From positions 1 to 28,491 of the forward strand of contig CAZECW010000028.1 of NCBI GenBank assembly GCA_964510585.1: DNA of 28,491 nt, given 5' to 3'. The translations under genes and the position numbers were made by a program. Of this stretch, positions 7,201 through 28,263 are shown piece after piece. Every line of letters starts with the position of its first letter. The stretch's first letter is position 1. The notes below the pieces were generated by a model. The model did no database searches, was not told the origin of the DNA, and saw only the letters and a program-made list of their open reading frames with translations. The stretch is from an uncultured archaeon (lineage in GTDB: Archaea; Asgardarchaeota; Jordiarchaeia; Jordiarchaeales; Jordiarchaeaceae).

Positions 7201-7355
7201 TCCTCAGAAATTTTAAAGTAAACATGTTTCTTATCCTTTAAATAAGGCTGAGACCCACAAAAGAATTTTCTAATAAATCCCTTCGCCTCAAAAAATTGTA
7301 CTATATCCTCAAATTTTTCCCCAGTCCTAAACACCTCAGCCATCATAAGAATCAC
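4215..7355 (-). CDS. Type IIG/Eco57I-like restriction-modification protein (N6-adenine MTase, gamma order, C-terminal target-recognition domain)
   Basis: IPYLNCGLF, ILGYIFE, GAVYTP, motif I IVDTAVGSGHFL, LFGVDI, NIRCGNSL, motif IV FDIVIGNPPY, VFKEAATYPII, and the C-terminal LADCIIYELYF helix. The start could be 7355, 7346 or 7343. Confidence 0.85.
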   Translation of the reverse strand: MILMMAEVFRTGEKFEDIVQFFEAKGFIRKFFCGSQPYLKDKKHVYFKISEEDLLLVVEHSPDEDAKNYERELENLSSKYILLVYQGAREYRLFRYDAGTGKILKLRKRKSDLELIFLRKLEALEYNNVDSFEELFDRSEFIKEFYQLYCYAENFFLGKIGGVLNERDKEFLTKIIFQRLIFLWFIQKKGLLDNNENYFLDKFREISGRNGNFYREFLKKLFFQGLCIKPDQRDEEVARLIGDIPYLNCGLFIETDVELKYSNISIPNEAFYREMRYPIPRGEQSIPALNLLECREWTVDERSGEVDKINPEILGYIFEKSVNKKDLGAVYTPEEVTTFMAKNTIHPYLVDRVNEKFSTNYSDLDELIVNGSREHLEHLFQVLRNIKIVDTAVGSGHFLVDAIVALKKIYHALREKGILGWSNYQIREYIIVNSLFGVDILEEAVEICKLRLFLALAETFMTREDVQPLPNIDFNIRCGNSLVGFASTSELVQNFFPKDDSVKTILDNMDFLEKNFPEIAEKAKNILGRPHIASMDLFKLRNELVKRYRTLHDRELQPKTRKVLVEITEAFNRELNAQYYGIVKEFFQSDNKLRKLRENERYKKFLELKPFHWVLEYSEVFEEGGFDIVIGNPPYISNKNLKHSEKVLYNNLSHCTHKQYDIYVLFIERGMKILKDEGEFSHIVSNKFLVTEYGKPLRNLLLKEWNTKMVIDVSNIKVFKEAATYPIIININRKRPSEKITISTVDKLTNLHKPQDLCISKKFFQSIPENVIPLKINKNNLPILEAVTRKFNNRYNFSCGIAASGFSKHITGEPQNLKEYQPIIQGDNIKPYAIVSSNKYIKKSIIPPGKREDFLKKKIVIPGMVKQLNAAIDLKGHALGRIYYLTEDIGITNLKGTLLLLNSKLFQYTYQVIYGSSHMAGGYLRINAPYLNIFSYPQNNKHLSTLAEYILTLQETSQENQYLQFLKELADCIIYELYFEEGLGTELNDTITPHLPNPEKITQEEKVNTIKETINKIKNNPQTKQKIEKIKNHPWIKIIESQTQTP

Positions 7356-7700
7356 TCATCACCCCTTTCCAATCTAGAACCTTCCCATACAAAACTCCAC
7401 CAAGACAAGTATATGGCTAATTGGACACTCGGCCTTAAAAGATTGTACTAGAACTTTAGTTGCGCTGAGCGGTTAATGACCAGTCAAATCATCTTTACAC
7501 ACCTTCACCTTATCCCTTCGGAATAATTCCTCTAGGATCTTCACCCAACCAGTTAATTTCAGATTCATATAATTTATTACTAAATTATTGTTTTTACTAA
7601 TAAAATCTATTTTGTCGGATGCGATTTAAGTAATTTAGATTGACTTGTGACCGCAAGAACTATTAGCACCCCTTACTAGTTAATTTTTGAGTGGATTGGT

Positions 7701-10256
7701 ATGCCTTATATTTTGAAAGGTTTCCCCATCGAAGAAATCGATGAGCTTGCCTGGAGAGAGAGTAATGTTCGGAAACCAATTTATCATATTCACAGATGGT
7801 TTGCGCGGAGGGTGGGCAGCACCTTCAGGGCACTTATTCTTGGAACGTTTCTTGAAGATAATCCTATGAAGCACTATTATGAGAGGGTTGAACTTAAAAA
7901 TGGGTGCGGCCGGCCGCCCATAGTTTTGGATCCATTTATGGGTGGAGGCACCACCATACTGGAGGGACATAGGCTAGGCTGCCGCATGATTGGTGTTGAC
8001 ATTAATCCCCTCTCATGGTTTATAACAAAGATGGAGCTTGAACCAGTAGATAAGCAAGGGGTGGAAGAGGAGTTCAGAAGAATAGAGGGCGCAGTGAAAA
8101 GAAGAATTCTCTCACTCTATAAAACACGGTGCAACAAGGGACACGAAGCCGACACTATGTATGTTTTCTGGGTTAAGAAGTTGAGGTGTGAGAACTGTGA
8201 TGGGGAGATTCTAATGTACAAAAATTTCGTCTTAGCCAAGCCGAAGGAAAAATGGGTTTATTTGTGTCCTAGATGTGGCGAAATTTTTCGGGACACGCCG
8301 GATTTGGAATCCACTAGGTGTCCAACATGTTCTTTATTGTTTAATCCCCGCTTAGGCTTCTCTGAAGGTAGAAGGTACCTGTGTCCAAACTGCAATTTTA
8401 AAGGGGAAATATTGGATGCAGTGCGGAGAAGAGGAGGAGGTGAGCCTCCTGAGCACGAAATGTTTGCCATAGAGTACTACTGTACCCGCTGCGGTAGAGA
8501 CTATAAGAAGCCTTGTGCTGAGGACTTCAAACTCTACTACAGGGCAAGGAGCGAGTTTGAAAGGATTAGGAATAAACTTTTGGGGTTTTTGATTCCAGAA
8601 CAGGAGATTCCAGATGGTTTTAGTACTAGTCAGATGAAGAAATTCAACTACAAGTACTGGTATCAAATGTTTAATGAGAGACAGCTTTATTGTCTCAGCC
8701 TCATCCTACGTGAAATCCTAAAGATTAAGGACGATGGGGTGAGGGAGTTTTTCTTGGCAACATTTTCCGATTGTTTGAACTCAAATAATATGTTCACAGT
8801 TTACAATGCGACTTGTTTAAAGCTGGAACCACTTTTTGGGGGTGGCTACTTCTGGCCACGTATGGCTCCCGTAGAGGGAAACGTTTGGGGCACAAGGTAC
8901 GGTAGGGGAACCTTCACCAGCTATTATAGGAAGGGGCTAAAAGCTCTAGAGTACCAGCAGAAACCCTACGAATTGAAATTCCAGTCCCACAATGTTAGAA
9001 ACGGGGCAAAAATGGGATGGAAAAAGTTTTTCGTGAAAAAGGATAAAATTAGTGGCCTTTTTGCATCCCACTTTGAAGAGCTACTTGGGGAAAAGAATGT
9101 TCTCCTCAGATGTGATTCCGCAGTGGATCTGAGCTTCATTTCTGATGGAGCCGTGGATGCAGTTGTTACTGATCCCCCCTACTATGATAATATTATGTAC
9201 AGCGAGTTGTCGGATTTCTTCTACGTTTGGCTGAGGCTTGGCTTAAAGGACAAGTACCCTGAAGTTTTCAGCTCTCCCCTTACACGCAGGGAGGAAGAAA
9301 TTGTTGTGAATGAAGCTCAGAGTAAAGGCGAAGCTTTCTACGCGTGGGGCTTAACCCAAGTTTTCAGAGAAGTTTTTAGGGTTCTAAGGAACGAGGGATT
9401 ATTAGTTTTCGTTTTTCAGTACCGCAGGACAAGTGCCTGGAAGGTCCTCCTCCAAGCCTTAACTAAATCGGGTTTCCGCGTGGTAGCAGTTTATCCCACC
9501 TATGGTGAAACACCCAGCGGGGTTAGAATAAACCGCATAAATTATGACGCAATTCTGGTGTGCAAGAAGTTTACTGAGGATGAGAAACTCCAGATGGATT
9601 GGACAGTTTTTTGGAGGGAGTTAGCCAATAGAATTGACTCTGGGATGAGGAAGGCTCTTAGTAAGCATCCAGACCTAAGCTTGGAGGACGCATTCATAAT
9701 TGGGATGGGCAAGGCATTGGAAGTTTACACCCAGACTAGTGGAGGTATAATTTGGGAGGGAAAAGTAGTAGATACTTCCGAAGTTCCCCTAGAGGCGGTT
9801 GAGGATATTGTTTTTGAATCCTTTCTCTCAAGTGTGGTTGAGAGGGCTCCCGAAGTAGACCATGTATCAAAGATTTACGCCGCTATTCTGGCAAAGAAGG
9901 ATAAGATTGGCAGAGACATCGTAAGCAAAATTTCTAACCCCGAAAAAATTTTTGAAAAAGAAAAATTGGTTAAAAGAATCAAAAATACTGGCAGGATGGC
10001 CATTTTACCGCCCATATTGAGAATGGAATTTGTGGAGCAGAAAATTAGGAATAGTCTTCCCCTGACCTACATCGACGCGGCACACCTTCTCTGGACAGCA
10101 CACCAGAAAAAGGAGGGAACCACAAAAATTCTGGAAACCATAATTCACACAGGAATAAATGGAGAAAAGCTGAGACAATACATCAGATTTTTATGGAAAA
10201 GAACTAGAAGCACGATTTGGAAAGAAATAGAAAGCGAACTCAGACTTGTTTCCTAA
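7701..10256 (+). CDS. DUF1156-like adenine-specific DNA methyltransferase with inserted Zn-ribbons
   Basis: N-terminal IHRWFARR, motif I VLDPFMGGGT, GVDINP, five CxxC pairs plus CNKGH, and motif IV VVTDPPYYDNIMYSELSDFFYVWL. Confidence 0.85.
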   Translation: MPYILKGFPIEEIDELAWRESNVRKPIYHIHRWFARRVGSTFRALILGTFLEDNPMKHYYERVELKNGCGRPPIVLDPFMGGGTTILEGHRLGCRMIGVDINPLSWFITKMELEPVDKQGVEEEFRRIEGAVKRRILSLYKTRCNKGHEADTMYVFWVKKLRCENCDGEILMYKNFVLAKPKEKWVYLCPRCGEIFRDTPDLESTRCPTCSLLFNPRLGFSEGRRYLCPNCNFKGEILDAVRRRGGGEPPEHEMFAIEYYCTRCGRDYKKPCAEDFKLYYRARSEFERIRNKLLGFLIPEQEIPDGFSTSQMKKFNYKYWYQMFNERQLYCLSLILREILKIKDDGVREFFLATFSDCLNSNNMFTVYNATCLKLEPLFGGGYFWPRMAPVEGNVWGTRYGRGTFTSYYRKGLKALEYQQKPYELKFQSHNVRNGAKMGWKKFFVKKDKISGLFASHFEELLGEKNVLLRCDSAVDLSFISDGAVDAVVTDPPYYDNIMYSELSDFFYVWLRLGLKDKYPEVFSSPLTRREEEIVVNEAQSKGEAFYAWGLTQVFREVFRVLRNEGLLVFVFQYRRTSAWKVLLQALTKSGFRVVAVYPTYGETPSGVRINRINYDAILVCKKFTEDEKLQMDWTVFWRELANRIDSGMRKALSKHPDLSLEDAFIIGMGKALEVYTQTSGGIIWEGKVVDTSEVPLEAVEDIVFESFLSSVVERAPEVDHVSKIYAAILAKKDKIGRDIVSKISNPEKIFEKEKLVKRIKNTGRMAILPPILRMEFVEQKIRNSLPLTYIDAAHLLWTAHQKKEGTTKILETIIHTGINGEKLRQYIRFLWKRTRSTIWKEIESELRLVS

Positions 10257-12322: not shown

Positions 12323-13468
<1,146 letters not shown>

Positions 13469-13478
13469 GGTTACAAGC

Positions 13479-13847
13479 ATGTATAGTAAAAAGGTAATTG
13501 AACACTTTTCAAACCCTCGAAATGTTGGCGAAATTGACTCCCCTGACGGAGTAGGTTCCGTCGGAAATCCAGCAGACGGTGATACTGTCACTATTTATCT
13601 AAAAATAGAGGATAACGTAATAAAAGACGTCAAGTTCAAGGTCAAAGGATGCCCAGCAGCAATCGCATCTGCTAGCATGACAACAGAACTCGCAAAGGGA
13701 AAAACCATAGAGGAAGGCCTAAAAATTACCAGAGAGGATGTGGCAAGAGAATTAGGCGGTCTACCTGCAAAAAAGAACGAGTGCTCCAATCTAGGAGCAG
13801 CCGCTCTACATGCTGCGATCAAAAACTATCTCAACAAAAAATCATAA
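13479..13847 (+). CDS. iscU: IscU/NifU-like Fe-S scaffold, atypical ligand set
   Basis: MYSKKVIEHFSNPRNVG, GCPAAIASAS and LPAKKNECS; lies 10 bp after iscS. The first Cys is replaced (GNPADGD). Confidence 0.85.
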   Translation: MYSKKVIEHFSNPRNVGEIDSPDGVGSVGNPADGDTVTIYLKIEDNVIKDVKFKVKGCPAAIASASMTTELAKGKTIEEGLKITREDVARELGGLPAKKNECSNLGAAALHAAIKNYLNKKS

Positions 13848-13991: not shown

Positions 13992-15482
13992 TTGTCTCGT
14001 CTTGATGAAATTCGTGACTGGTGGAAGCCAGACGTAATTTCTCCGGAGAAGGTTAAGAAGTTCATAGACATGTACCCCATTTATAAGAATGATGCAGATT
14101 GTCCTGCTTTTAAGAGTCAGAAGGAGATTAGGGAGATTCAGAACAAGAATTTGCGTGCTCAACTGGAACTCTGCCAGCAGTATAGTCCCTACTATAGCAA
14201 GTTGTTCAAAGAGAAAAACATTGACATTTCCCAGATTAAAACCGTAGACGACTTGGAAAAACTTCCCCTTACCACAAAGATGGACTATATGAAGGCCCCC
14301 GACTCTTTTAAGCTTCGCTTAGCGGGTGTTCCGGGCAGACAAATTTTTGAGCTCATCGACTGGAACATTACAATGACCACGGGCACAACCTACGGCTTTC
14401 CAACGATTTTCTGGAACACAACCCACGATGAGTACGCCCTGCTACAGTTCCTCATTAGAAGCAGTAAAATCAGCTGGGGCACTCCAGACGACCGAATATT
14501 TAACTGTTTCCCCTTCGGCCCGGTTCCCCACATTGGCTATCTGCGTGCCATAACCGCCCCTCTGGCTATTGGAGCCTCCGTGTGTGCGGGCCATACAGGT
14601 ATGGCTTATCCCACGTTTCCTGTGCTTAGAAGAATGGATGAAGCCATATCTATTGCCGAGAACCACAAATGCACAATAATTATGGGGATTGCCAGCTACA
14701 TTCGCAGAATGATTATGCGGGCTGAGGAGCTGGAAGCAGACTTTTCCAATATACGTGCCATCCACGCTTTGGGCGAGCCTTGCCCAATGGGTATGCGCGA
14801 AGATATGCGTAAAAGGTTGAAGAATCTGGGAGCAGAAGACGTTTTTATACACAATGGGTGGGGCTTCACCGAATGTCAAGGTAGCCTTAGTGAGTGTACA
14901 GAGCTTGGCGGAAATCATAACCCCGATCCCGGCTTGTACTTCCTTGAGGTTGTGGATCCAGAGACCGGAGAGAGGAAGGCGGACGGTGAGGAGGGAGTGG
15001 CTGCTATTACTCATTTGAATAGGAGGGGCACGGTTCTTCTGCGCTACGTTTTGGGTGACATTGTTCGGATGACTCACGAGAGCTGTCCCCACTGTGGTAG
15101 GAATACGGAGCGGATTTTGCCGGTTTCTGGCAGTGTCTACGCCACTCGTACCAAGGAGCTGGTGAAGTTTAAGGGTACCCTCATTAATCCGGGAGTTCTT
15201 AAGGACGCTATTGAGAATGTGGGGGGTATTGCAGAGTACCAGATTGTTTTTACCAAGACTGACCCTAAGGATCCCTATAGTATGGATCAGTTAGTGCTCA
15301 AAGTGGCTCCTGTTCCCGATGTCAACCGTAAAGATTTGGAAGCGAAAATTAAGGATGCGGTTGCTAAGGCTGCTGAGATGAGTGCCAAAATAGAGTGGGT
15401 TGAGAAGCCAAGCGACATCTATGACCCCATGGTTTCCCTCAAAGCCACACGAGTAGTGGACGCCAGGCCCCCTCTAGAATAG
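13992..15482 (+). CDS. Phenylacetate-CoA ligase (PaaK)-family adenylate-forming enzyme
   Basis: DDLEKLPLTTK, P-loop variant TTGTTYG, WGFTE, LEVVDPETGE, LLRYVLGD, and C-terminal KATRVVD. TTG start after GGAGGAG. Confidence 0.85.
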   Translation: MSRLDEIRDWWKPDVISPEKVKKFIDMYPIYKNDADCPAFKSQKEIREIQNKNLRAQLELCQQYSPYYSKLFKEKNIDISQIKTVDDLEKLPLTTKMDYMKAPDSFKLRLAGVPGRQIFELIDWNITMTTGTTYGFPTIFWNTTHDEYALLQFLIRSSKISWGTPDDRIFNCFPFGPVPHIGYLRAITAPLAIGASVCAGHTGMAYPTFPVLRRMDEAISIAENHKCTIIMGIASYIRRMIMRAEELEADFSNIRAIHALGEPCPMGMREDMRKRLKNLGAEDVFIHNGWGFTECQGSLSECTELGGNHNPDPGLYFLEVVDPETGERKADGEEGVAAITHLNRRGTVLLRYVLGDIVRMTHESCPHCGRNTERILPVSGSVYATRTKELVKFKGTLINPGVLKDAIENVGGIAEYQIVFTKTDPKDPYSMDQLVLKVAPVPDVNRKDLEAKIKDAVAKAAEMSAKIEWVEKPSDIYDPMVSLKATRVVDARPPLE

Positions 15483-17973: not shown

Positions 17974-18762
17974 TTGTCTGATAGTGTTGATCTGTCTTTT
18001 CTTGATCGGCCTGAGATTCTGAGTTTTATTTTCTATCCTCGGAGGGATTTTGGGGAATCAAGGGTGGGCACCACATACTTCATTGAGGTGGAGGAAGGAG
18101 TCGACATCGGCTGCAGATTTTATTTGAGCGGAAAGGATAATCCCTCTATTCTTTATTTTCATGGGAATGGTGAAACGGTTGGCGATTATGACTGGGTTTC
18201 GCCAAGTTTTACCCGAAGGGGAATTAACCTTTTCGTTGCTGACTATAGAGGATATGGGGTGAGTGATGGCAGCCCAACCATTTCCAATTTGGTTAAAGAC
18301 GCCCACCCCATCTTTAAAGGGTTTAAAGAAATAGTTGCTCAAGAAAAATGCAGAAACAGTCTCTTCCTCATGGGACGCTCCTTGGGGAGTGTTCCCACTT
18401 TAGAGCTGGCTTACCACTATCAGGATGAGGTTAAGGGTTTAATTATTGAGAGTGGACCCGCTGACACCTTCAACATTCTTTTCAGCCTCTTCGGATTCGA
18501 AATCAGCCCCTCCCTGAGAGAAAAATTGGAAGCCGCCTCCAACAAGGCAAAAATCAGAGAAGTCCATATTCCAACCCTTATCATACACGCCGAACAGGAC
18601 TCACTAATTCCCCTAAGTGAGGGAAAAGCACTCTACCAAAACTCTGGGGCTAAAAACAAAGAACTCTACATCATACCAGGAGCCGACCACAACACATTAT
18701 GGCTAGTGGCAGGTGAAGAATATTACCAGAGAATAGAAGAATTCGTCAAAAAATACGGCTAA
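17974..18762 (+). CDS. Alpha/beta hydrolase (ABHD13/17-like)
   Basis: LYFHGNGE, DYRGYG, nucleophile GRSLG, IHAEQDSLIP (Asp) and GADHN (His). Confidence 0.92.
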   Translation: MSDSVDLSFLDRPEILSFIFYPRRDFGESRVGTTYFIEVEEGVDIGCRFYLSGKDNPSILYFHGNGETVGDYDWVSPSFTRRGINLFVADYRGYGVSDGSPTISNLVKDAHPIFKGFKEIVAQEKCRNSLFLMGRSLGSVPTLELAYHYQDEVKGLIIESGPADTFNILFSLFGFEISPSLREKLEAASNKAKIREVHIPTLIIHAEQDSLIPLSEGKALYQNSGAKNKELYIIPGADHNTLWLVAGEEYYQRIEEFVKKYG

Positions 18763-19897: not shown

Positions 19898-20677
19898 CTA
19901 AAATCCTAAAGCTCTGTGTATCACTTGCTGGCTTGTGTTGTAGAGTGTCAGTCCGCCGTCTACCACAATCACCTGACCTGTTATGTAGCCTGCTCCCGGG
20001 GATGCTAGGTAGGCTGCGGCTTCAGCTATGTCTTCTGGTGTTCCGTATCTATGTATGGGTATCTCCTTGTGGAGTTCGGGTGTTGCTGTTAACATGTCCT
20101 TGGTCATACCTGTTTTTATTATTCCTGGTGCGATCGCGTTCACCGTTATTCCCCTGTGAGCCACCTCCAACGCTAGTGCTCTTGTTAGGCCTATCATAGC
20201 CGCTTTTGCAGCGCTGTAGTGGGCGCTGGTGGTTTCTCCATTTATACCCGCTACCGAGGATATATTGATTATTCTGTCTCCCTCCCGCATAGATTTGACA
20301 ACGGCGCGTGAGAAATAGAATGCACCATCAACGTGCACCCTGAACATGTTGCGCCACTGTTCTGTGGTCATGTCTTGGAGCATACTAAAGTTTACTATGC
20401 CTGCATTGTTTACTAGAATATTTACCCTTCCCAGATTTTTCTCAGTTTCTTCAACTGCTTGAATTACTTGGGCTTCTTCACCCACATCACACTTGACAGC
20501 TATGGCTCTGCCACCCAATTCTCCAATTTCTTTGGCTACCCTTTCTGCTCCCTCAATGTTAATGTCGACCAAGGAAATCTTGGCACCTTCAAGCGCGAAG
20601 CGGTGGGCGATACCACGACCAATACCAGAAGCGGCGCCGGTGATGAGGGCAACCCTACCCGATAATTTTCCATTCAA
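19898..20677 (-). CDS. Short-chain dehydrogenase/reductase (FabG-like, probably NAD-preferring)
   Basis: TGAASGIG, LVDIN (acidic residue after beta-2), LVNNAG, NISS, YSAAK, and YITGQVIVVDGG. TTG start at 20677 after GGAGG. Confidence 0.92.
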   Translation of the reverse strand: MNGKLSGRVALITGAASGIGRGIAHRFALEGAKISLVDINIEGAERVAKEIGELGGRAIAVKCDVGEEAQVIQAVEETEKNLGRVNILVNNAGIVNFSMLQDMTTEQWRNMFRVHVDGAFYFSRAVVKSMREGDRIINISSVAGINGETTSAHYSAAKAAMIGLTRALALEVAHRGITVNAIAPGIIKTGMTKDMLTATPELHKEIPIHRYGTPEDIAEAAAYLASPGAGYITGQVIVVDGGLTLYNTSQQVIHRALGF

Positions 20678-20983
20678 AACAACGACCTCCAAAAATTTGT
20701 ATTAATTAGTGGAACAGGCAAACTTTTAAGAATTTTCAAAACAGGTTCCCCATCCATAGGATCAAACAAATTGCTAAAAGCGTCCTTTGTCAAGAGTATG
20801 GAGGGTACCTATTATTGCTTATTATTCGATTAGGTTTTCTCCAAAAAACTCCATAAAGGCTGCCTTTTGGAGGTATACCACGCTCTTCTACATTATTATT
20901 GTTATAGTTAAAGACATATATGCAAAAAGAACATTTTTTAGATGCAAGGATCTGTATTTATTGGTGACTTATGGGGAAACGCT

Positions 20984-21853
20984 ATGTCGCGCTCCTATGG
21001 AAGCCAATCTATGACGGCTCAGCTTAAAAGTATACTTGTAAGAAGACCTCTGGAGGAAGAATGGCATATAAAGGATTGGAGGAAATGGGGTTATCTTAGA
21101 AAACCGAATATAAAATTGGCTAGGGAGGAACACGCAAACTTCGTTGAAACTATAAAGGCTGAGGGGGTACGCGTGTTCTTTGTTGATGATGTTCACAAGG
21201 AACGCTTGGACGCCATTTTTACCAGCGATCCAGCGATCATAACTGATAGGGGCGCAGTGATACTTAAAATGAGCAAGGCTTTGAGGATTGGGGAAGAAGA
21301 AACCCTAAGTGAGAACATTGCAAAACTGAATATTCCCGTCCTTGGAAGAATTCAGGGAGAAGCAACCCTTGAGGGAGGAGACGTATTGTGGCTAGACCCC
21401 AAAACCATTATAATCGGCCGCTCCTATCGCTCCAACATTCAGGGAATTACACAACTAAAAAATATTCTAAATGGCTTGGCCAACACAAGCCACGTGGACT
21501 TGCCCCATTGGCATGGATCAGGAGAGTGCCTCCACCTCCTGTCTCTAATTAGCTTAATAGATGAGGATTTAGCGCTGGTTTATCCAGAATTGGCACCAGT
21601 GTCACTATTAGAGAGCCTAAAAGCGAGAAACATAAAAATAGTTGATGTTCCAAGAAGGGAGTTTGAAACCCAAGGCTGCAATGTTTTAACACTAAAGCCC
21701 CGAAAATGCATGATGGTAGAGGGAAACCCCAAAACAAGAAAAACTCTGGAAAAAGAGGGAGTAGAAGTAATCGAATTCCAAGGGAAAGAGATATGCCTAA
21801 ACAGAACAGGAGGACCATCATGCCTCGTATGCTCAATTCTAAGAGACTACTAA
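20984..21853 (+). CDS. Amidinotransferase superfamily enzyme (DDAH/arginine deiminase-like)
   Basis: AREEH, IFTSDP, LEGGD, CLHL, and C-terminal GGPSC with the catalytic Cys. Start placed at ATG 20984. Confidence 0.88.
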   Translation: MSRSYGSQSMTAQLKSILVRRPLEEEWHIKDWRKWGYLRKPNIKLAREEHANFVETIKAEGVRVFFVDDVHKERLDAIFTSDPAIITDRGAVILKMSKALRIGEEETLSENIAKLNIPVLGRIQGEATLEGGDVLWLDPKTIIIGRSYRSNIQGITQLKNILNGLANTSHVDLPHWHGSGECLHLLSLISLIDEDLALVYPELAPVSLLESLKARNIKIVDVPRREFETQGCNVLTLKPRKCMMVEGNPKTRKTLEKEGVEVIEFQGKEICLNRTGGPSCLVCSILRDY

Positions 21854-21998: not shown

Positions 21999-22397
21999 CT
22001 ACTCTTGGTTTAGGTGTTCACGGATGAAGGCCACTATGTCCTTGATTAGAGATCCTGGACCGTAGACGTTTGCAACTCCCATTTTCTTTAACTCGGCGAA
22101 GTCCACTTCTGGAATTGCTCCTCCTACCAGTATCATAAACCTGTCCTTTAGTCCCTTCTCCTCTAGTAACTGGACGAGTTTTTTGGTGTATGCTATGTGC
22201 GCTCCGGAGTGTATGCTCATTCCAATTATGTCTACGTCTTCTTCTATAGCGGTTTTCACGATTTGATCTATGGTTTGGAATCCTCCGAACACTACTTCCA
22301 TTCCTGCGTCTCTCAGCCCCATGGATACAGTTACTGCGCCTCTCCAGTGTCCATCCACGCCGGGTTTTGACATCAAGAACTTTATTTTCTTGGGCAA
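21999..22397 (-). CDS. Cobalamin-binding small subunit of acyl-CoA mutase
   Basis: KPGVDGHWRGA (DxHxxG), GMSIHSGAH and VGGAIP; lies 12 bp downstream of the large subunit. Confidence 0.93.
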   Translation of the reverse strand: MPKKIKFLMSKPGVDGHWRGAVTVSMGLRDAGMEVVFGGFQTIDQIVKTAIEEDVDIIGMSIHSGAHIAYTKKLVQLLEEKGLKDRFMILVGGAIPEVDFAELKKMGVANVYGPGSLIKDIVAFIREHLNQE

Positions 22398-22409
22398 AGT
22401 GAGGCACCT

Positions 22410-24086
22410 CTAAGTCATCATGGGTGGATTCCAGATACCCCACATTTCACGATAAACGTTGCAAATTTCTCCTAGAGTTGCTCCCTCTTTCGTGGCTTCC
22501 ATAACTGCGGGTAGCACATTTTCTTCTCTCTCACAAACTCTGCGCAGCTTGTCTAAGAGCTCCTGCACTTTTCTATTGTCTCTCCTTGCCTTCAACTTCT
22601 TGATACGTTCAATTTCTATTTCTGCGGCTCTAGGATTAGTTCTAAATACTTTGGTGGAAGGCACCTCGTCACGGACGTATATGTTAACACCTATTACCTT
22701 CTCTTTTCCTTCCTCTATGGCTGTTTGACGCTTGTGGAAGGCGTTTCTCATTTCTTGGAAAAGCCATCCACTTTCCAGCCCGCCCACTATGCCCCCATGG
22801 GCCTCTATTTTGTCCATATACTTCCAAACTCTATCCTCTATTTCATCAGTTAGCCACTCCACATAGTAGGAGCCTGCTAGAGGATCAATGGTGTTGGTGA
22901 CTCTAGTTTCTTCAGCAATTACCTGCTGAGTTCTTAGGGCAAGTAGTACCGCTTCCTCGCTGGGAAGGCATATTGCCTCATCGTAAGAGTTTGTGTGCAT
23001 AGACTGGCAACCGCCCAGCACAGCCTCCAGAGCCTGGATCGTGGTTCTAATTATGTTTACGGTAGGCTGCTGCGCCGTTAGGGAGCTTCCCGCAGTCTGA
23101 ATGTGAAACCTGAACTGGTAGGATTCGCGGTTTTTGGCCTCGTATTTGTCTCTCATAAGTTTGTACCATATTCTTCGGGCCGCGCGAAACTTAGCGATTT
23201 CCTCGAAAAAGTCCTTGTGGGCTGAAAGGTGGAATGCGAGGCGCCCCACAAAGTCATCTATGTGCCAGCCCCTCTCAATTAAGTTATCAATGTGTGCCAT
23301 GGCATTAGCGAATCCTATTGCCAATTCCTGAATTGCATCAATGCCCCCTTCACGATAATTGTAGGTGGTGAAGTTTATGGGGTGCCATTTTGGAACGTTC
23401 TTCTGGGCTGCGGTGTACTCTATTAGGTCGCAGGCTAGTCTGAGCAGGTGGTGGGGTGCAACGTTTTCGAAAGGTACGAAGCCTAAACTCATGGTGCAAA
23501 TGTCGTTCTGGCAGGTTCCCATAAGGTTTTTGAGGTCTATGCCTTTGCTCTTTGCCATGTTGAAATACATGGCGCATACGGGAGCACTCGTAAAGGGTTC
23601 AACAACCAGTGCAACGCTGATTTTATCTATGGGGAGTCCCTCCGTGAGGGCATACATGCTGTCTATACAGTAAAGTGGCACGCCGGATGTACCTACTTCC
23701 GCCATTGCTCTGGGATCATCTGGATCAAGTCCGTTAAAGGTTAAAGCGTCCACCGCGGCGCTGAACCCTGTTTCTCCCTCCCTATAAAGTAGTTTCCACC
23801 TCTCATTTGTCTCCTCGGGGGTACCGTATCCCGAAAAAAGTCTCATGGTCCATAAACGGCCACGGTACATGTTTAGATAAACGCCCCTTGTGTAGGGAGG
23901 CTGCCCCGGGAACCCCACGTCTCTCAGATAATCATGATTTTTTATGTCCGCCGGTGTATAGAGCCTCTTTACCGGTATGCCCGAGTAGGTTGTGAACTCT
24001 ACGTCGCGTTCCTTACATTTTTCGACCTTTTTTTCCCAATTCTTCTGGTTTTCTTCAATTTCCTTTATCGCCTCTGGATCGAACAT
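22410..24086 (-). CDS. B12-dependent acyl-CoA mutase large subunit (methylmalonyl-CoA mutase family, non-canonical specificity residues)
   Basis: PGQPPYTRG, GRLWTMR, QND, FFEEIAKFRAARRIW, HIQTAGSSLTAQQP, HTNSYDEA and IDPLAGSYYVE. Confidence 0.93.
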   Translation of the reverse strand: MFDPEAIKEIEENQKNWEKKVEKCKERDVEFTTYSGIPVKRLYTPADIKNHDYLRDVGFPGQPPYTRGVYLNMYRGRLWTMRLFSGYGTPEETNERWKLLYREGETGFSAAVDALTFNGLDPDDPRAMAEVGTSGVPLYCIDSMYALTEGLPIDKISVALVVEPFTSAPVCAMYFNMAKSKGIDLKNLMGTCQNDICTMSLGFVPFENVAPHHLLRLACDLIEYTAAQKNVPKWHPINFTTYNYREGGIDAIQELAIGFANAMAHIDNLIERGWHIDDFVGRLAFHLSAHKDFFEEIAKFRAARRIWYKLMRDKYEAKNRESYQFRFHIQTAGSSLTAQQPTVNIIRTTIQALEAVLGGCQSMHTNSYDEAICLPSEEAVLLALRTQQVIAEETRVTNTIDPLAGSYYVEWLTDEIEDRVWKYMDKIEAHGGIVGGLESGWLFQEMRNAFHKRQTAIEEGKEKVIGVNIYVRDEVPSTKVFRTNPRAAEIEIERIKKLKARRDNRKVQELLDKLRRVCEREENVLPAVMEATKEGATLGEICNVYREMWGIWNPPMMT

Positions 24087-24988
24087 AGCACCACATCCTC
24101 AAACCCATAAAGTTAAGTTTAATATTTAACTATTTATTATCCTCATTCCTTAAACAATTTTTGGGTTCTACTACCATCTCACAATTTTATCGAATCTCTG
24201 TTTACGAGCACTTCATGGCTTATAATTTTTTTTATCCAATACTCGATACAATAAACCCTCTATATTAAATTGTCTATCAAATTAGCAATTAAGATAAACA
24301 CACTAACCCCAAAGACCTTGAAAACTCCACACAGGTAATTAACTTGGCTGAAACGCACAAAAAATAATCAGCCACTTCTAAAAAACTGTACTCCTCTGCT
24401 CGGATTAGCCTCCCAGGGCAACCTTAACTAAGAATCTCCTAACCTATACCCTAAAAGAAGCATTAATGTAGGCTATCAAAACTGCTTCCAAAATTTGGCA
24501 CGCTAAAAACAGGCTGTGCTTTTGGATGAAGGCCTGTTTTTTCTTTGAGGACAGCTTGCAAAAGAGGCTTAATTAAACTTCCCGTCCATCCTAAACCTAT
24601 TTACAAGAGAGGAGGTCAGAACGCATATGAATAAAAATAACAAAAAAGGGCCTTCGGTATTAACCAAAATTTTGGGAAAAAATTTTAATATTTAAAGGAA
24701 TGAGCGTTATAGCACAGCTCCATTTCGCCCTCAGAACCGAAAAATGCATCCCAGCAAAACGCGTTTAAAACAGACTAGGTAGAACACCGTTAAAAGGAGA
24801 ACCAAACAGCTAGAAGCCCCGGAATAAAAGTGCAGAAACCTAATAATGAGCGCAGCACACATCCTACAACCATTGCAACCGTTATCCAAAAACTCGTGGA
24901 AATCGGGAAAATTGAGGTGTGAAAATAACGGGTTTTAATGGTGGGGGCGAAATGGGAGTCTAATCCAAATATGAATGAGGTTACCATT

Positions 24989-25453
24989 ATGAGTGAACTA
25001 CCGGAAAAGGATGAGGGAATATACGTCCATCGAAGTGGAATAAAAGTCCCTTACCAGTGGCATGCCGGAGAATATGCAACCTACTTTTACAAACAGCTGA
25101 GAGAAAAAAAGATTTGGGGAACCAAGTGTCCAGAGTGTGGTAAAGTCTATGTGCCTCCTAAGAAGATCTGCATAGAGTGTTTTAAGCAGTGCCGTGAATG
25201 GGTGGAACTGAGTGACACCGGAACCCTACTCACCTACACCATTGTTAGGTATAGTGAGCCACTCATTCAGCCAAGAGAGCCACCATTCGCATATGGCATA
25301 ATAAAACTGGATGGAGCCGACACTGGAATGGTACATTTCCTAGGAGAAGTCGACTTTGACAAGATTAAGGTCGGCATGAGGGTTAAGGCGGTGTTCAACG
25401 AAAATCCCGAGGGAAACTATCTAGACATAAAATACTTTAAGCCGGTAGGGTGA
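24989..25453 (+). CDS. DUF35 Zn-ribbon/OB-fold thiolase partner
   Basis: GTKCPECGKVYVPPKKICIEC, GTLLTYTIV, KLDGADT and KVGMRVKAVF. ATG 24989 follows GAGGT. Confidence 0.92.
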   Translation: MSELPEKDEGIYVHRSGIKVPYQWHAGEYATYFYKQLREKKIWGTKCPECGKVYVPPKKICIECFKQCREWVELSDTGTLLTYTIVRYSEPLIQPREPPFAYGIIKLDGADTGMVHFLGEVDFDKIKVGMRVKAVFNENPEGNYLDIKYFKPVG

Positions 25454-25460
25454 AAACGTT

Positions 25461-26594
25461 ATGAAGGTTGGAATAGTAGGAGTAGCTCAAACAAAACATG
25501 AGGGAAAGAAACCCAAACAGATTTTCGCAGATATGATATTTGAAGTGGTCAGTAAAGCCTTGGACGACGCGGGACTGGTGAGAGACGACATTGAAAACGT
25601 GGTGACCATCAGCAGTGACTTCTGGGATGGAAGGACCATTTCCAGTATGGCTGTTATGGACGCTTCAGGCTCGGTGGGGCGCGACGTAACCACCGTTGAA
25701 GGAGACGGAACCTTCGGAACAGTAATGGGCGTCATGCGCACACTAGCAGAATTTGAAACCACAGTGGTATGTGCCCACGCCAAAATTTCGGAGTGCAACC
25801 CCAGAGTAGTCTTCAACTGTGCATTCGACCCCATATATGAAAGAATACTGGGTTTAGATGCCATATCCTCATCTGCCCTCCAGGCCAGAAGATACATGGT
25901 AAAATATGGAGCCACTGAAGAACAGTTTGCAAAGGTCTCAGTCAAAAACCACAAAAACGCCTTCAACAATCCATACGCACACTTACCGCTAAACATTACA
26001 GTTGAAGATGTACTCAAATCAAGAATGCTAGCAGACCCCCTAAAAGTTCTCGATTGCTCCCCTGTCACTGACGGCGCAGCAGCAATCATCCTTGCCAAAG
26101 AGTCAAAGGCCAAACAAATCTGCGACAACCCCATCTGGATAAATGGAATAGGATACTGCTGTGACGCCTACCATCTCGGAGAAAGAGATTTAGCAGAAAC
26201 TGCAGCACTGAGAAAAGCCGCTGAGAGAGCCTACAAAATGGCGGGCATAAAAAACCCCCTAAAAGAGATTGATGTGGCCGAAGTTTACGACGCCTTTTCA
26301 TACATGGAACCCATGTGGATGGAAGGACTAGGCTTCTGCAAAAAGGGTGAGGGCGTAAAACTAATAGACGAAGGAATAACCGAAATGGGCGGCCAGCTAC
26401 CCGTGAATCCCTCGGGAGGAGTACTCTCAGCCCACCCAGTACTCGTAGCAGGACTGGTCAGAATAATAGAGTGTGTGCTACAGCTCAGAGGAGAAGCAGA
26501 CAAAAGACAGGTACCCGACGCTGAAGTCGCACTAGCCCACGGAATAAACGGCCCCTGCGGCCAATCCCATTGTGTACTCATACTAGGAAAATGA
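25461..26594 (+). CDS. SCP2-type thiolase-fold protein lacking the nucleophilic Cys (Ltp4-like)
   Basis: SVKNH, DCSPVTDGAAA, AEVYDAF and VNPSGG. The usual CxSG region reads VEGDGTFG. Confidence 0.85.
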   Translation: MKVGIVGVAQTKHEGKKPKQIFADMIFEVVSKALDDAGLVRDDIENVVTISSDFWDGRTISSMAVMDASGSVGRDVTTVEGDGTFGTVMGVMRTLAEFETTVVCAHAKISECNPRVVFNCAFDPIYERILGLDAISSSALQARRYMVKYGATEEQFAKVSVKNHKNAFNNPYAHLPLNITVEDVLKSRMLADPLKVLDCSPVTDGAAAIILAKESKAKQICDNPIWINGIGYCCDAYHLGERDLAETAALRKAAERAYKMAGIKNPLKEIDVAEVYDAFSYMEPMWMEGLGFCKKGEGVKLIDEGITEMGGQLPVNPSGGVLSAHPVLVAGLVRIIECVLQLRGEADKRQVPDAEVALAHGINGPCGQSHCVLILGK

Positions 26595-26602
26595 GGTGAA
26601 TA

Positions 26603-27769
26603 ATGATGAGAAGAGTAGGTATTGTAGGAGTAGGCCAAACCCACCACAGATCTCACAGACCAGACGTAACTGGACAGGAAATGATAAACGAAGCGGTACA
26701 AAGAGCACTCGACGACGCCGAGCTCACTATAGAGGAGATTGACGCGGTGGTCATAGGGAACATGGACCACTTTGAGGGCATAAACTATGTTGATACTTGG
26801 AGTATAGATGGTTCCGGAGGATTCATGAAGCCAATTATGAAGATGACAACCGGTGGAACAACTGGAACCACACTTGCTATTGGTGGATACTATCATGTAG
26901 CTTCTGGAATGTTTGATACGGTTCTGGTCATCGGATGGGAGAAAAACTCTGAGTCCGACACCACAGCGGCAATCGCCACCTGCGCAAATCCCATAATAGA
27001 AAGAGACTTTTTCTCGGGAGCCATAGGTCCCCTAGCCACAGCTGCCACAGGGTACATGGAGCGTTACGGGGCTACCGAGGAGGACGCCGCCATAGTATCA
27101 GTGAGAGAACACACCAACGCGCTTGACAATCCCTACGCCCATGTACGGATAAAAATAACTGTCGAGGACGTGTTGAAATCACCAATGCTCTCATACCCAA
27201 TAAAACTTCTAGACATGTGTCCAAGATCAGACGGCGCCTGCGCAATAATTTATGCAGAAGAGAAGAAAGCTAGGCAGATAACAGACACCCCTGCATGGGT
27301 CAAGTGCTGCGTGACTCGGCACGACTATACCCACTTTGGAGACCTAACTTTGGGAGCACGGGACTGGGGTATTGCTATGCCGACATTGGAGGCGGCTTCC
27401 AGGGAAGCATACAAAATATGCAAGATAAAGAATCCACTCAAAGACTTCGACCTCATGGAATTATATACGCCATCCTCCTTCTCGGGACTAATGTGGATGG
27501 AATCTTTAGGGGTATGCGGACCGGGTGAGAACATAAAGCTTAACCGCGAGGGAGTATACGAAAAATACGGGGAATTACCAGTAAATCTTTCAGGAGGAGT
27601 AATCTGCACAAACCCCATAGGTGCAACTGGTCTTATTAGAGTCGGCGAAGCAGCACTCCAAATAATGAAAAAAGCGGGCAAGCGTCAAGCACCAGGGGAA
27701 GTTAGAAGAGCGCTATGCACCGGCTTCGGGGGATGCAGCTGGACCGACATTGTGATTCTAGAGGCATAA
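26603..27769 (+). CDS. SCP2-type thiolase-fold protein lacking the nucleophilic Cys (Ltp3-like)
   Basis: GWEK, DMCPRSDGACA, MELYTP and VNLSGGVICTNPIGATG. The CxSG region reads TTGGTTGT. Confidence 0.85.
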   Translation: MMRRVGIVGVGQTHHRSHRPDVTGQEMINEAVQRALDDAELTIEEIDAVVIGNMDHFEGINYVDTWSIDGSGGFMKPIMKMTTGGTTGTTLAIGGYYHVASGMFDTVLVIGWEKNSESDTTAAIATCANPIIERDFFSGAIGPLATAATGYMERYGATEEDAAIVSVREHTNALDNPYAHVRIKITVEDVLKSPMLSYPIKLLDMCPRSDGACAIIYAEEKKARQITDTPAWVKCCVTRHDYTHFGDLTLGARDWGIAMPTLEAASREAYKICKIKNPLKDFDLMELYTPSSFSGLMWMESLGVCGPGENIKLNREGVYEKYGELPVNLSGGVICTNPIGATGLIRVGEAALQIMKKAGKRQAPGEVRRALCTGFGGCSWTDIVILEA

Positions 27770-27786
27770 ATGATGGAGGAATCAGG

Positions 27787-28263
27787 ATGAGCGAAAAGAA
27801 GGAGAAAAAGGAGTATCTAACTATAACCTCTGGAAAGACATGGGCACCCTACAATTGGCATGTGGGTGAATACTGGACCAAGTTTCTAGACGGGCTAAAA
27901 GAAAAGAAATTCTACGGAATAAAATGCCACAAGTGCGGGACAGTATACGCTCTACCAAGACAGGTCTGCGGAAGATGCTTCGTCAAAATGGAGAACTGGG
28001 TAGAACTCCCACACGAAGGTACCATCACGTCCTTTACCGTGGTAAAATTCCCATACATTGATCCCAACACTGGCCAAATAATTCAGCCCCTCCCCTTCAC
28101 AACTGCCTCCATTAGACTAGACGGAGCGGATACCGCCATCTGGCACTACCTCAACATAACAGACGAAACCAAGATTAAAGTCGGACAACGGGTGAGAATA
28201 GTCTGGCAAGAAAAAAGGAAGGGCAGCATTCACGACATTAAGCACTTCGAAATCATCGACTAA
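27787..28263 (+). CDS. Second DUF35 Zn-ribbon/OB-fold protein
   Basis: GIKCHKCGTVYALPRQVCGRC, GTITSFTVV, RLDGADT and KVGQRV. ATG 27787 follows GGAGG. Confidence 0.92.
   Translation: MSEKKEKKEYLTITSGKTWAPYNWHVGEYWTKFLDGLKEKKFYGIKCHKCGTVYALPRQVCGRCFVKMENWVELPHEGTITSFTVVKFPYIDPNTGQIIQPLPFTTASIRLDGADTAIWHYLNITDETKIKVGQRVRIVWQEKRKGSIHDIKHFEIID

Follow-up and report, generated by a model that had tools for sequence, protein, structure and literature searches.

The window, the whole stretch of 28,491 nucleotides of archaeal DNA analysed here (contig CAZECW010000028.1), contains two sets of acyl-CoA genes: a two-gene operon for a B12-dependent acyl-CoA mutase, and a DUF35-thiolase-thiolase-DUF35 operon, hereafter the cassette (Table 1). 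The mutase pair lies on the minus strand and the cassette on the plus strand, the two pointing away from each other across 902 bp. All six open reading frames (ORFs) are intact, and their arrangement bears out the outward transcription from a region of about 900 bp described in an earlier, sequence-only reading of this DNA. The gene for the large mutase subunit is separated by 12 nt from that for the small subunit downstream of it, and the cassette genes are spaced by 7–17 nt, with a Shine-Dalgarno-like motif at each start; in DUF35 protein a this motif was used to pick the start codon. The DUF35 proteins possess zf-ChsH2 and OB_ChsH2_C domains and two CxxC pairs each, and the thiolase-like chains (A and B) possess Thiolase_N and Thiolase_C_1 domains. 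The closest named relatives of both halves are in Jordarchaeia/Freyarchaeota, which indicates that the host is an Asgard archaeon.

A shared bidirectional regulatory element in the intergenic region was considered and rejected. No Rfam family was matched in the window, the repeats in the region are short and at chance level, and a TATA-like stretch (approximately 24668–24741), which is conserved ahead of the cassette in related loci, moves with the cassette in the related locus L139, where only some 25–30 bp adjoining the mutase start are conserved from the intergenic region.

Table 1. Features of the mutase-cassette locus and of two neighbouring genes (positions are those of the window)
Feature	Position	Strand	Remarks
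Small mutase subunit, B12-binding, 132 aa	21999..22397	minus	TTG start; DxHxxG motif present as DGHWRG; TIGR00640, 130.8 bits (cut-off 57.45)
Large mutase subunit, TIM-barrel, substrate-binding, 558 aa	22410..24086	minus	TIGR00641, 556.9 bits (cut-off 303.8)
Intergenic region, 902 bp	24087..24988		
DUF35 protein a, 154 aa	24989..25453	plus	PF12172 + PF01796; zinc ribbon and OB fold; likely scaffold subunit
Thiolase-like A, Ltp4-like, 377 aa	25461..26594	plus	Cys-less; probably a partner rather than catalytic
Thiolase-like B, Ltp3-like, 388 aa	26603..27769	plus	Cys-less; probable catalytic retro-aldolase subunit
DUF35 protein b, 158 aa	27787..28263	plus	PF12172 + PF01796; zinc ribbon and OB fold
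FabG-like short-chain dehydrogenase/reductase (SDR), downstream of the mutase	19898..20692	minus	Homologues (54–83%) near the mutase in L041, L042, L043, L081 and L139
Arginine-deiminase/DDAH-fold amidinotransferase-family gene	20942..21853		Convergent with the mutase operon

The large subunit of the mutase was modelled as a TIM barrel (pLDDT 88) with TM-scores of 0.93–0.94 to 2-hydroxyisobutyryl-CoA mutase (HCM; 4r3u), with which it shares 40% identity. In an alignment with the methylmalonyl-CoA mutase (MCM) of Propionibacterium, residues of which are given in PDB numbering (chain index plus one), Phe84, Phe203 and Asn243 stand at the positions of Tyr89, Arg207 and His244. Leu83, Glu163, His235 and His286 replace Gln88, Asn168, Asn236 and Phe287, and the MCM residues Arg87, Gln197, Tyr243, Glu247, His328, Gln330, Asn366 and Glu370 are retained. 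The roles ascribed here to Tyr89, Arg207, His244 and the other aligned pocket residues are those usual for MCM. The possibility of an ethylmalonyl-CoA mutase was rejected, His328 and Asn366 being retained.

These exchanges define a clade with the signature R82-L83-F84-S85, E163, Q193, F/Y203, H235, Y242-N243 and H286. In 191 distinct sequences with at least 60% identity to the mutase, many of them close kin, the exchanges are invariant where covered: Phe84 occurs in 186/186 sequences covering the position and Asn243 in 191/191, while position 203 is occupied by Tyr (175 sequences) or Phe (16). In a FastTree phylogeny of 153 proteins the 15 sampled members form a single clade (support 100), separate from MCM, from Xaut_5043 and from two references for HCM; the labels of these references, and of Xaut_5043 as a pivalyl-CoA mutase, are assumed. 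The small subunit carries the DGHWRG motif in 70 of 75 orthologous loci, the remaining five giving no match to the regular expression. Odd pockets are common in the superfamily, and the surprise of this one is limited for that reason: among 119 full-length cluster representatives drawn from the best 150 matches, Tyr89 is present in 30, and position 244 is His in 42 and Asn in 23. By sequence comparison the mutase belongs to a distinct subfamily, which likely rearranges a non-acidic acyl-CoA.

Members of the clade occur in 116 of the 400 Asgard genomes. It is near-core in the large Lokiarchaeia-type family designated f9 (103/135 genomes) and is present also in Syntrophoarchaeum and Helarchaeota; its members are named methylmalonyl-CoA mutase in the databases. 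The genome from which the window derives additionally specifies a canonical Tyr/Arg/His copy of MCM type (contig C211) and a Phe/Gln/His copy (contig C29), the latter showing what we take to be the isobutyryl-CoA mutase (ICM) signature. Ten other Asgard genomes gave a similar picture, with an ICM-type paralogue in 10/10, one of these calls (G219) resting on the first motif, and an MCM-type paralogue in 8/10. Because both types are kept alongside it, the clade mutase appears to be retained for a third job. The suggestion made from sequence alone that this is a mutase other than methylmalonyl-CoA mutase is thus upheld both by the loss of the pocket residues and by the canonical copy on another contig. 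Genes for MeaB and an adenosyltransferase are both on contig C25 of the window's genome.

The neighbours of the mutase were surveyed in 80 orthologous loci, 61 of which extend at least 2.5 kb upstream. They include MeaB (58 loci), the electron transfer flavoprotein (ETF) alpha (28) and beta (22) subunits, acyl-CoA dehydrogenase (ACAD; 27), the two subunits of a CoA-transferase (22 and 16) and, adjoining the small subunit, a gene of the HpaB/AbfD family (10). In six loci (L067, L088, L093, L103, L104 and L116) the large subunit is divided into two ORFs, the break in L088 falling near residue 90–130; this may be either an assembly error or a real lesion.

We infer the following course of reaction. 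Adenosylcobalamin would attach to the small subunit at its DxHxxG motif, homolysis of the Co-C bond would give an adenosyl radical, and the removal of hydrogen from the carbon next to C2 would be followed by a 1,2-shift of the thioester. Family membership makes it very probable that the mutase carries out such an adenosylcobalamin-dependent radical shift on a non-carboxylated acyl-CoA. Methylmalonyl-CoA is almost certainly not the substrate, since the carboxylate-binding Tyr/Arg pair has become Phe/Phe(Tyr), and isobutyryl-CoA alone is quite probably not the substrate either, since a Phe/Gln/His paralogue of ICM type is kept alongside. Our leading guess, to which we give about an even chance, is a short monocarboxylic acyl-CoA derived from an amino acid and bearing a polar (hydroxy) group or five carbons. 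It would be supplied by a CoA-transferase and drained by acyl-CoA dehydrogenase and ETF, the usual neighbours in Asgard genomes.

The Phe in place of Tyr89 and the loss of Arg207 would also agree with the enzyme being an additional isobutyryl-CoA/n-butyryl-CoA mutase whose pocket has drifted. This would suit the butyryl-CoA-dehydrogenase-like ACAD and ETF genes that lie divergently beside the mutase in 27/80 loci, and the presence of the clade in butane-oxidising Syntrophoarchaeum. We consider this unlikely, as a paralogue with the ICM signature is present in all ten genomes checked as well as in the window's genome, the clade invariably has other residues in place of His244 and of the Gln at the Arg207 position, and the small subunit is a dedicated one with DGHWRG. 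Less probable still is the interconversion of 3-hydroxyisobutyryl-CoA and 4-hydroxybutyryl-CoA as a feed for 4-hydroxybutyryl-CoA dehydratase. The new invariant polar residues E163, H235 and H286 and the HpaB/AbfD-family gene beside the small subunit point in that direction, but this gene is missing in 70/80 loci, the ten that have it are from related genomes, it is convergent rather than co-oriented with the mutase, and its presumed identity as a dehydratase is deduced from its Pfam family.

Neither thiolase-like chain of the cassette possesses the nucleophilic Cys, and in both a Tyr replaces the His of the SCP2-type HDAF motif, so that the non-standard active sites claimed for both enzymes in the sequence-only reading were found in the cassette as in the mutase (Phe84/Phe203/Asn243). 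Chain A has EGDG in place of the Cys loop, YDAF, and AHP, in which the His of the GHP motif is retained; this His is lost only in B, the motifs of which are a TTGGTTG loop, E286-x-Y288-x-P290 and TNPIG. In a quick IQ-TREE phylogeny of 81 proteins, with SH-aLRT support values only, B falls within a 31-row clade with actinobacterial PRK08313-type proteins (support 99) and A within a 28-row clade with PRK07937-type proteins (support 95), in agreement with the Ltp3 and Ltp4 names given to them earlier. Both score below the NCBIfam cut-offs (B, PRK08313, 340 against 514; A, PRK07937, 191 against 419) and are accordingly relatives rather than members of these families. A pair from Tsukamurella passes both; its genes follow those for a tandem OB-fold protein, a ligase and a crotonase, at what we take to be the ltp3/ltp4 locus.

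Tyr288 of B was detected in 116/120 homologues, the other four being misses of the regular expression. In 44 aligned sequences Tyr288, Glu286, Pro290, Asn337 and the Gly-rich loop are invariant. The corresponding Tyr of A is present in 61/66 close partners and varies among paralogues. Retro-aldol cleavage by Ltp2 and Sal depends on the Tyr at this position as the catalytic base (PMC12329534). B is without a YDH/YDC motif; its Cys206, which is invariant, and Cys378, nearly so, are candidate general acids. The loss of the Cys together with the retention of the aldolase Tyr supports the retro-aldolase role proposed from the sequence. Tyr288 of B would deprotonate a 3-hydroxyl group, and cleavage between C2 and C3 would yield acetyl- or propionyl-CoA together with an aldehyde or ketone; A and both DUF35 proteins would serve as structural partners of B. 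By sequence, such Tyr288-initiated cleavage by a B/A/DUF35 complex is probable. As substrates we tentatively favour tertiary 3-hydroxy-3-methylacyl-CoAs, such as might arise from leucine or from isoprenoid chains; lacking the carboxylase, these archaea could not otherwise beta-oxidise them.

The window's genome contains six four-gene cassettes. The five others, together with two lone Ltp3-type genes, are on contigs C60, C139, C38, C27, C87, C12 and C193 and occur in two gene orders. Among 80 related metagenome loci, 45 of them with at least 4 kb upstream of B, the full cassette is present in 55, many of the remaining loci being short. Its neighbours, counted from pruned ORFs and hence lower bounds, are ligases (20), ACADs (20), MaoC (13), SDRs (12), 3-hydroxyacyl-CoA dehydrogenases (10), canonical thiolases (10), beta-keto acid cleavage enzymes (BKACE; 7), enoyl-CoA hydratases (ECH; 7) and iron-containing alcohol dehydrogenases (4). 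Forty further Asgard Ltp3-type loci, mostly of a paralogous cassette clade and including eight paralogues from two congeners, gave ECH-family genes in 31 and BKACE genes in 30. There are 4–6 BKACE genes in the cassette-bearing congeners and one in the cassette-less congener G005. Beyond the genus the next named relatives of the cassette are in Dehalococcoidia, Desulfobacteraceae and Actinomycetota (62–67%), while Loki-type copies show only 51–55%.

The frequency of BKACE near cassettes (7/80 and 30/40 loci) and its lower number in G005 would also be consistent with another C-C or acyl-transfer reaction of the thiolase-fold pair, such as retro-Claisen hydrolysis of a 3-oxoacyl-CoA in partnership with BKACE, and for the second of the catalytic residues in Ltp2 and Sal the cassette shows no clear counterpart. 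The one invariant residue of a catalytic type is nevertheless the Tyr common to both proven aldolases, and nearby genes often encode MaoC/ECH hydratases or enzymes that handle aldehydes or alcohols; we therefore regard a non-aldolase reaction as having only a small chance of being correct.

A PF01039 carboxyltransferase was not found in 5/5 congener genomes (G000 and G002–G005, one of them complete), while 12/14 controls have one. These genomes still have MCM genes, canonical in that of the window and MCM-like in the others. The negative fits the cleavage of tertiary 3-hydroxy-3-methylacyl-CoAs and makes a sterol side-chain substrate, which the sequence-only reading had listed among its candidates, unlikely. 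A true sterol side-chain aldol-lyase would match actinobacterial Ltp3/Ltp4 in its clades and gene set, and in a review Ltp3-Ltp4 is called a heteromeric aldol-lyase that acts after carboxylation and hydration and is assigned to removal of the C24 branch (PMC6678751). The identity of 29–39% to the actinobacterial pairs, below both family cut-offs, the carboxylation that the route needs, for which no carboxyltransferase was found, and six divergent cassettes per genome, which point to several non-sterol substrates, leave this function very improbable, no search for ring-degradation genes having been made.

The two halves are seldom found together. The cassette lies beside an orthologous mutase in 1/80 mutase loci (L042, 98% identical); in two others a single, distant thiolase-like gene is found 6–8 kb away. 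Conversely, a mutase is near relatives of the cassette in 2/80 loci, namely L139 (89%, a close relative) and L203, in which the mutase is a different one (45%), and no mutase stands beside the Ltp3-type genes of the 40 further Asgard loci. In the complete congener G005 a CBS gene lies immediately upstream of an intact mutase operon (87%), and a search for Ltp3-type genes at E≤1e-60 found none; G005 has eight Thiolase_C_1 matches against 26, and seven DUF35 matches against 19. In L139 an unrelated gene of 1,007 aa stands between mutase and cassette. The cassette-CBS link is present in six relatives, and within the genus mutase - cassette - CBS gene appears to be the original order. In G002 both mutase and cassette are at contig ends, and in G001 (87% complete) the mutase was not found with this query.

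Co-occurrence was examined in family f9, where both genes are present in 44 genomes, the mutase only in 59, an Ltp3-like gene only in nine and neither in 23. With 40.4 genomes expected to have both, this gives a Fisher p of 0.15; the test concerns a paralogous cassette clade, at most four candidates were scored per genome, and the genomes are related rather than independent. Expressed differently, 59/103 mutase-bearing f9 genomes have no Ltp3-like match at E≤1e-90. In none of the 44 two-gene genomes, the assemblies of which are fragmented, are the mutase and an Ltp3-like gene on one contig. The histories of the halves differ as well: the relatives of the mutase are in Asgards and Syntrophoarchaeum, and the next named relatives of the cassette are bacterial.

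The proposal in the sequence-only reading that the two operons form one system is not supported by this comparison (1/80, 2/80 and 0/40 loci, G005 without the cassette, L139 split), and conservation of the adjacency in related genomes, which it had named as its own test, largely fails, being confined to one genus. Our preferred reading, which we hold to be fairly probable, is that the window carries two intact acyl-CoA modules, likely independent, joined by a gene order inherited within one genus. The genes, residues, clades and neighbourhood counts are observations, while the reactions, the complex and the substrates are predictions drawn from them. Each half may contribute to the handling of branched chains, the two working in parallel and not as one unit.

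Several observations weigh against this reading. The pair is adjacent in G000 and G003, and its adjacency in G004 is implied by two contigs that each break off within the intergenic region and have 33 bp in common. The order survives, with its insert, in L139 at 89% mutase identity, that is, across at least 11% divergence of the mutase. Random placement of six cassettes and three mutase genes on 3.78 Mb would give a gap of ≤1 kb in approximately 1% of cases and of ≤10 kb in approximately 9%; the adjacency is uncommon, yet it was picked post hoc in a genome rich in acyl-CoA genes. The f9 odds ratio of 1.9 leans positive and is not significant. In metagenome locus L203 (3856–12629) a co-oriented run comprises another mutase, a small subunit, an SDR, an ACAD, a DUF35-Ltp4-like-Ltp3-like-DUF35 cassette and a BKACE gene. 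This mutase has an RQVAG motif with Val at the Tyr89 position and keeps His244, and a divergent double-TetR regulator lies beside the run. Of the loci seen, L203 is the likeliest to represent a true mutase-plus-aldolase pathway, and it indicates that a cassette of this type can work in one pathway with a mutase of some kind. On a plasmid of the haloarchaeon Natronosalvus (NZ_CP101160.1; L246, 5873–20126) a mutase with the ICM signature is approximately 8 kb from four thiolase-family and three DUF35-type genes, ACADs and ECHs, the two thiolase-like chains not being firmly grouped in the tree. As regards the separate halves, E163 and H286 are placed in the acyl pocket from strand positions in the model and from MCM numbering, and may lie elsewhere; and for Ltp3/Ltp4 the accessible literature yielded genetic assignment only and no biochemistry.

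A second, separate link between a mutase and DUF35 was also observed. In G000 (C211, 872–6054) the canonical MCM-type large subunit is encoded directly behind a DUF35 gene, and in two genomes of the same taxonomic order (L035, 9250–13711; L036, 2521–6998) its counterpart follows genes for a thiolase, a Cys-less SCP2-type thiolase (ENGPASG, with HDAF and GHP kept) and DUF35.

The strongest form of a joint function would be a branch-removal route without biotin carboxylase. From a 2,2-dimethylacyl-CoA (pivalyl type) the mutase would form a 3-methylacyl-CoA of the isovaleryl type. ACAD/ETF and a hydratase would turn this into the tertiary 3-hydroxy-3-methylacyl-CoA, from which the cassette would release acetyl-CoA and a methyl ketone. 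Like the mutase of the window, IcmF presumably has Phe at the Tyr89 position. The adjacency in several congeners with its chance of approximately 1%, the carboxyltransferase found in none of the five congeners, the ACAD/ETF genes beside the mutase in Loki-type loci and the L203 operon, which couples another mutase to a cassette orthologue, are in keeping with such a route. So is the interconversion of pivalyl- and isovaleryl-CoA by IcmF (PMC10481361). Set against them are the linkage of only 1/80, 2/80 and 0/40, the mutase without a cassette in G005 and without an Ltp3-like match in 59/103 f9 genomes, the gene that separates the pair in L139, and the position of the mutase apart from Xaut_5043, taken to be a pivalyl-CoA mutase, the Leu of which it does not share. 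A joint route is on balance improbable. There is correspondingly little chance that Jordarchaeum-type Asgards degrade quaternary or beta-methyl-branched acids without a carboxylase, by a route put together from a B12 mutase of new specificity and a heteromeric Ltp4/Ltp3-DUF35 retro-aldolase, with L203 as an independent assembly of the same logic.

Among the other genes of the window, three had been suggested as feeder enzymes. The SDR stands up as a neighbour of the mutase, which it follows in congeners, though not at this identity in other Asgards; it is possibly an accessory of the mutase and not of the cassette. The PaaK-like ligase (13992–15482) and the alpha/beta hydrolase (17974–18762) were discarded as feeders of the locus because they are not beside the mutase in 98%-identical relatives. 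A 65% homologue of the ligase lies between two Ltp4/Ltp3-DUF35 cassettes in G009 (L310, 222–11166), and in view of this the ligase is possibly linked to the cassette family. The amidinotransferase-family gene occurs in three congener loci and is absent from G005 and L139; it was rejected as a pathway member, being convergent, limited to congeners and without a link to acyl-CoA. Nucleotides 4215–10256 contain a divergent Eco57I-type restriction-modification gene (1046 aa) and a DUF1156 methyltransferase gene (851 aa), probably a defence island, which was not seen beside the mutase in relatives. A NifS-NifU pair for iron-sulfur assembly (TIGR03402, over its cut-off) is located at 12323–13847. 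A 79-bp stretch at 1057–1135, perhaps a small repeated element, has an 89% match at one end of a contig from a congener (L027, 1–79), upstream of the mutase gene there.

No description of the mutase clade, of an archaeal Ltp3/Ltp4 cassette or of their pairing was found in the literature searched, most subscription papers lying outside it, and the term mutase was not found in the main text of PMC11291895 or PMC6478937. Passages of PMC11599936, PMC4428469, PMC7100375, PMC2667541 and PMC10398937 yielded no decisive information. What the locus offers is two mislabelled, testable enzymes rather than a demonstrated system in their pairing. As the clade is named methylmalonyl-CoA mutase though the defining residues are gone, metabolic reconstructions of Asgards miscount this enzyme. 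A new acyl-CoA mutase specificity would have biocatalytic use. The cassette would provide a handle on Ltp3/Ltp4 chemistry with small substrates and from a thermotolerant lineage, and could explain how anaerobes lacking the carboxylase pass beta-methyl branches.

Compared with known mutases, the enzyme of the window is closest to HcmAB (4r3u), its best solved relative (E=2e-134), with which it shares split large and small subunits and the equivalents of Arg87, Gln197, Tyr243, Glu247, His328, Gln330, Asn366 and Glu370. Where HCM has Ile/Asp/Gln/His (motifs RQIAG and STDFD), this mutase has Phe84/Ala111/Phe203/Asn243, Ile90 and Asp117 of 4r3u corresponding to Phe84 and Ala111, and it belongs to a separate clade. 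With IcmAB/IcmF (4xc6, 5cjt) it has in common a Phe at the Tyr89 position and the lack of the carboxylate-binding Arg; it differs from ICM in Leu83, Tyr/Phe203, Asn243, Glu163 and His286, with neither Gln at the Arg207 position nor His244, and from IcmF in not being fused to MeaB (NF045497, 271 bits against a cut-off of 1500). The fold and the B12 motif are those of MCM (1req), in which Tyr89, Arg207 and His244 are all different. The subunits of Xanthobacter Xaut_5043/5044, which we take to be a pivalyl-CoA mutase, are also split and the His244 position is also replaced, but Xaut_5043 shows 35% identity, has Leu at the Tyr89 position and falls in a different clade. For Syntrophoarchaeum an unknown mutase has been proposed to convert 2-butyl- to 1-butyl-CoM (PMC9118554); nothing found here links the clade to this step, and most of its carriers are of Loki type and not alkane oxidisers.

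The cassette resembles Ltp2-ChsH2 (6ok1) and Sal-Shy (9myr) in its Cys-less thiolase fold, the position of the base Tyr and the DUF35 partner (PMC12329534), and B has, like Ltp2 and Sal, a Gly-rich loop for the nucleophilic Cys. Ltp2 and Sal are homodimers with YDHF or YDCY, while here there are two chains with YDAF and YTPS; no hydratase is fused to DUF35, and there is no evident counterpart of Tyr344 (Ltp2) or Cys304 (Sal). From actinobacterial Ltp3-Ltp4 the cassette is set apart by its anaerobic archaeal host, by the carboxyltransferase that was not found in the congeners, and by two separate DUF35 genes flanking the pair in place of one tandem-DUF35 protein. It shares with that system the gene order, A then B, the two DUF35 units, and the ExYxP and [ST]NPIG motifs in the chain of Ltp3 type.

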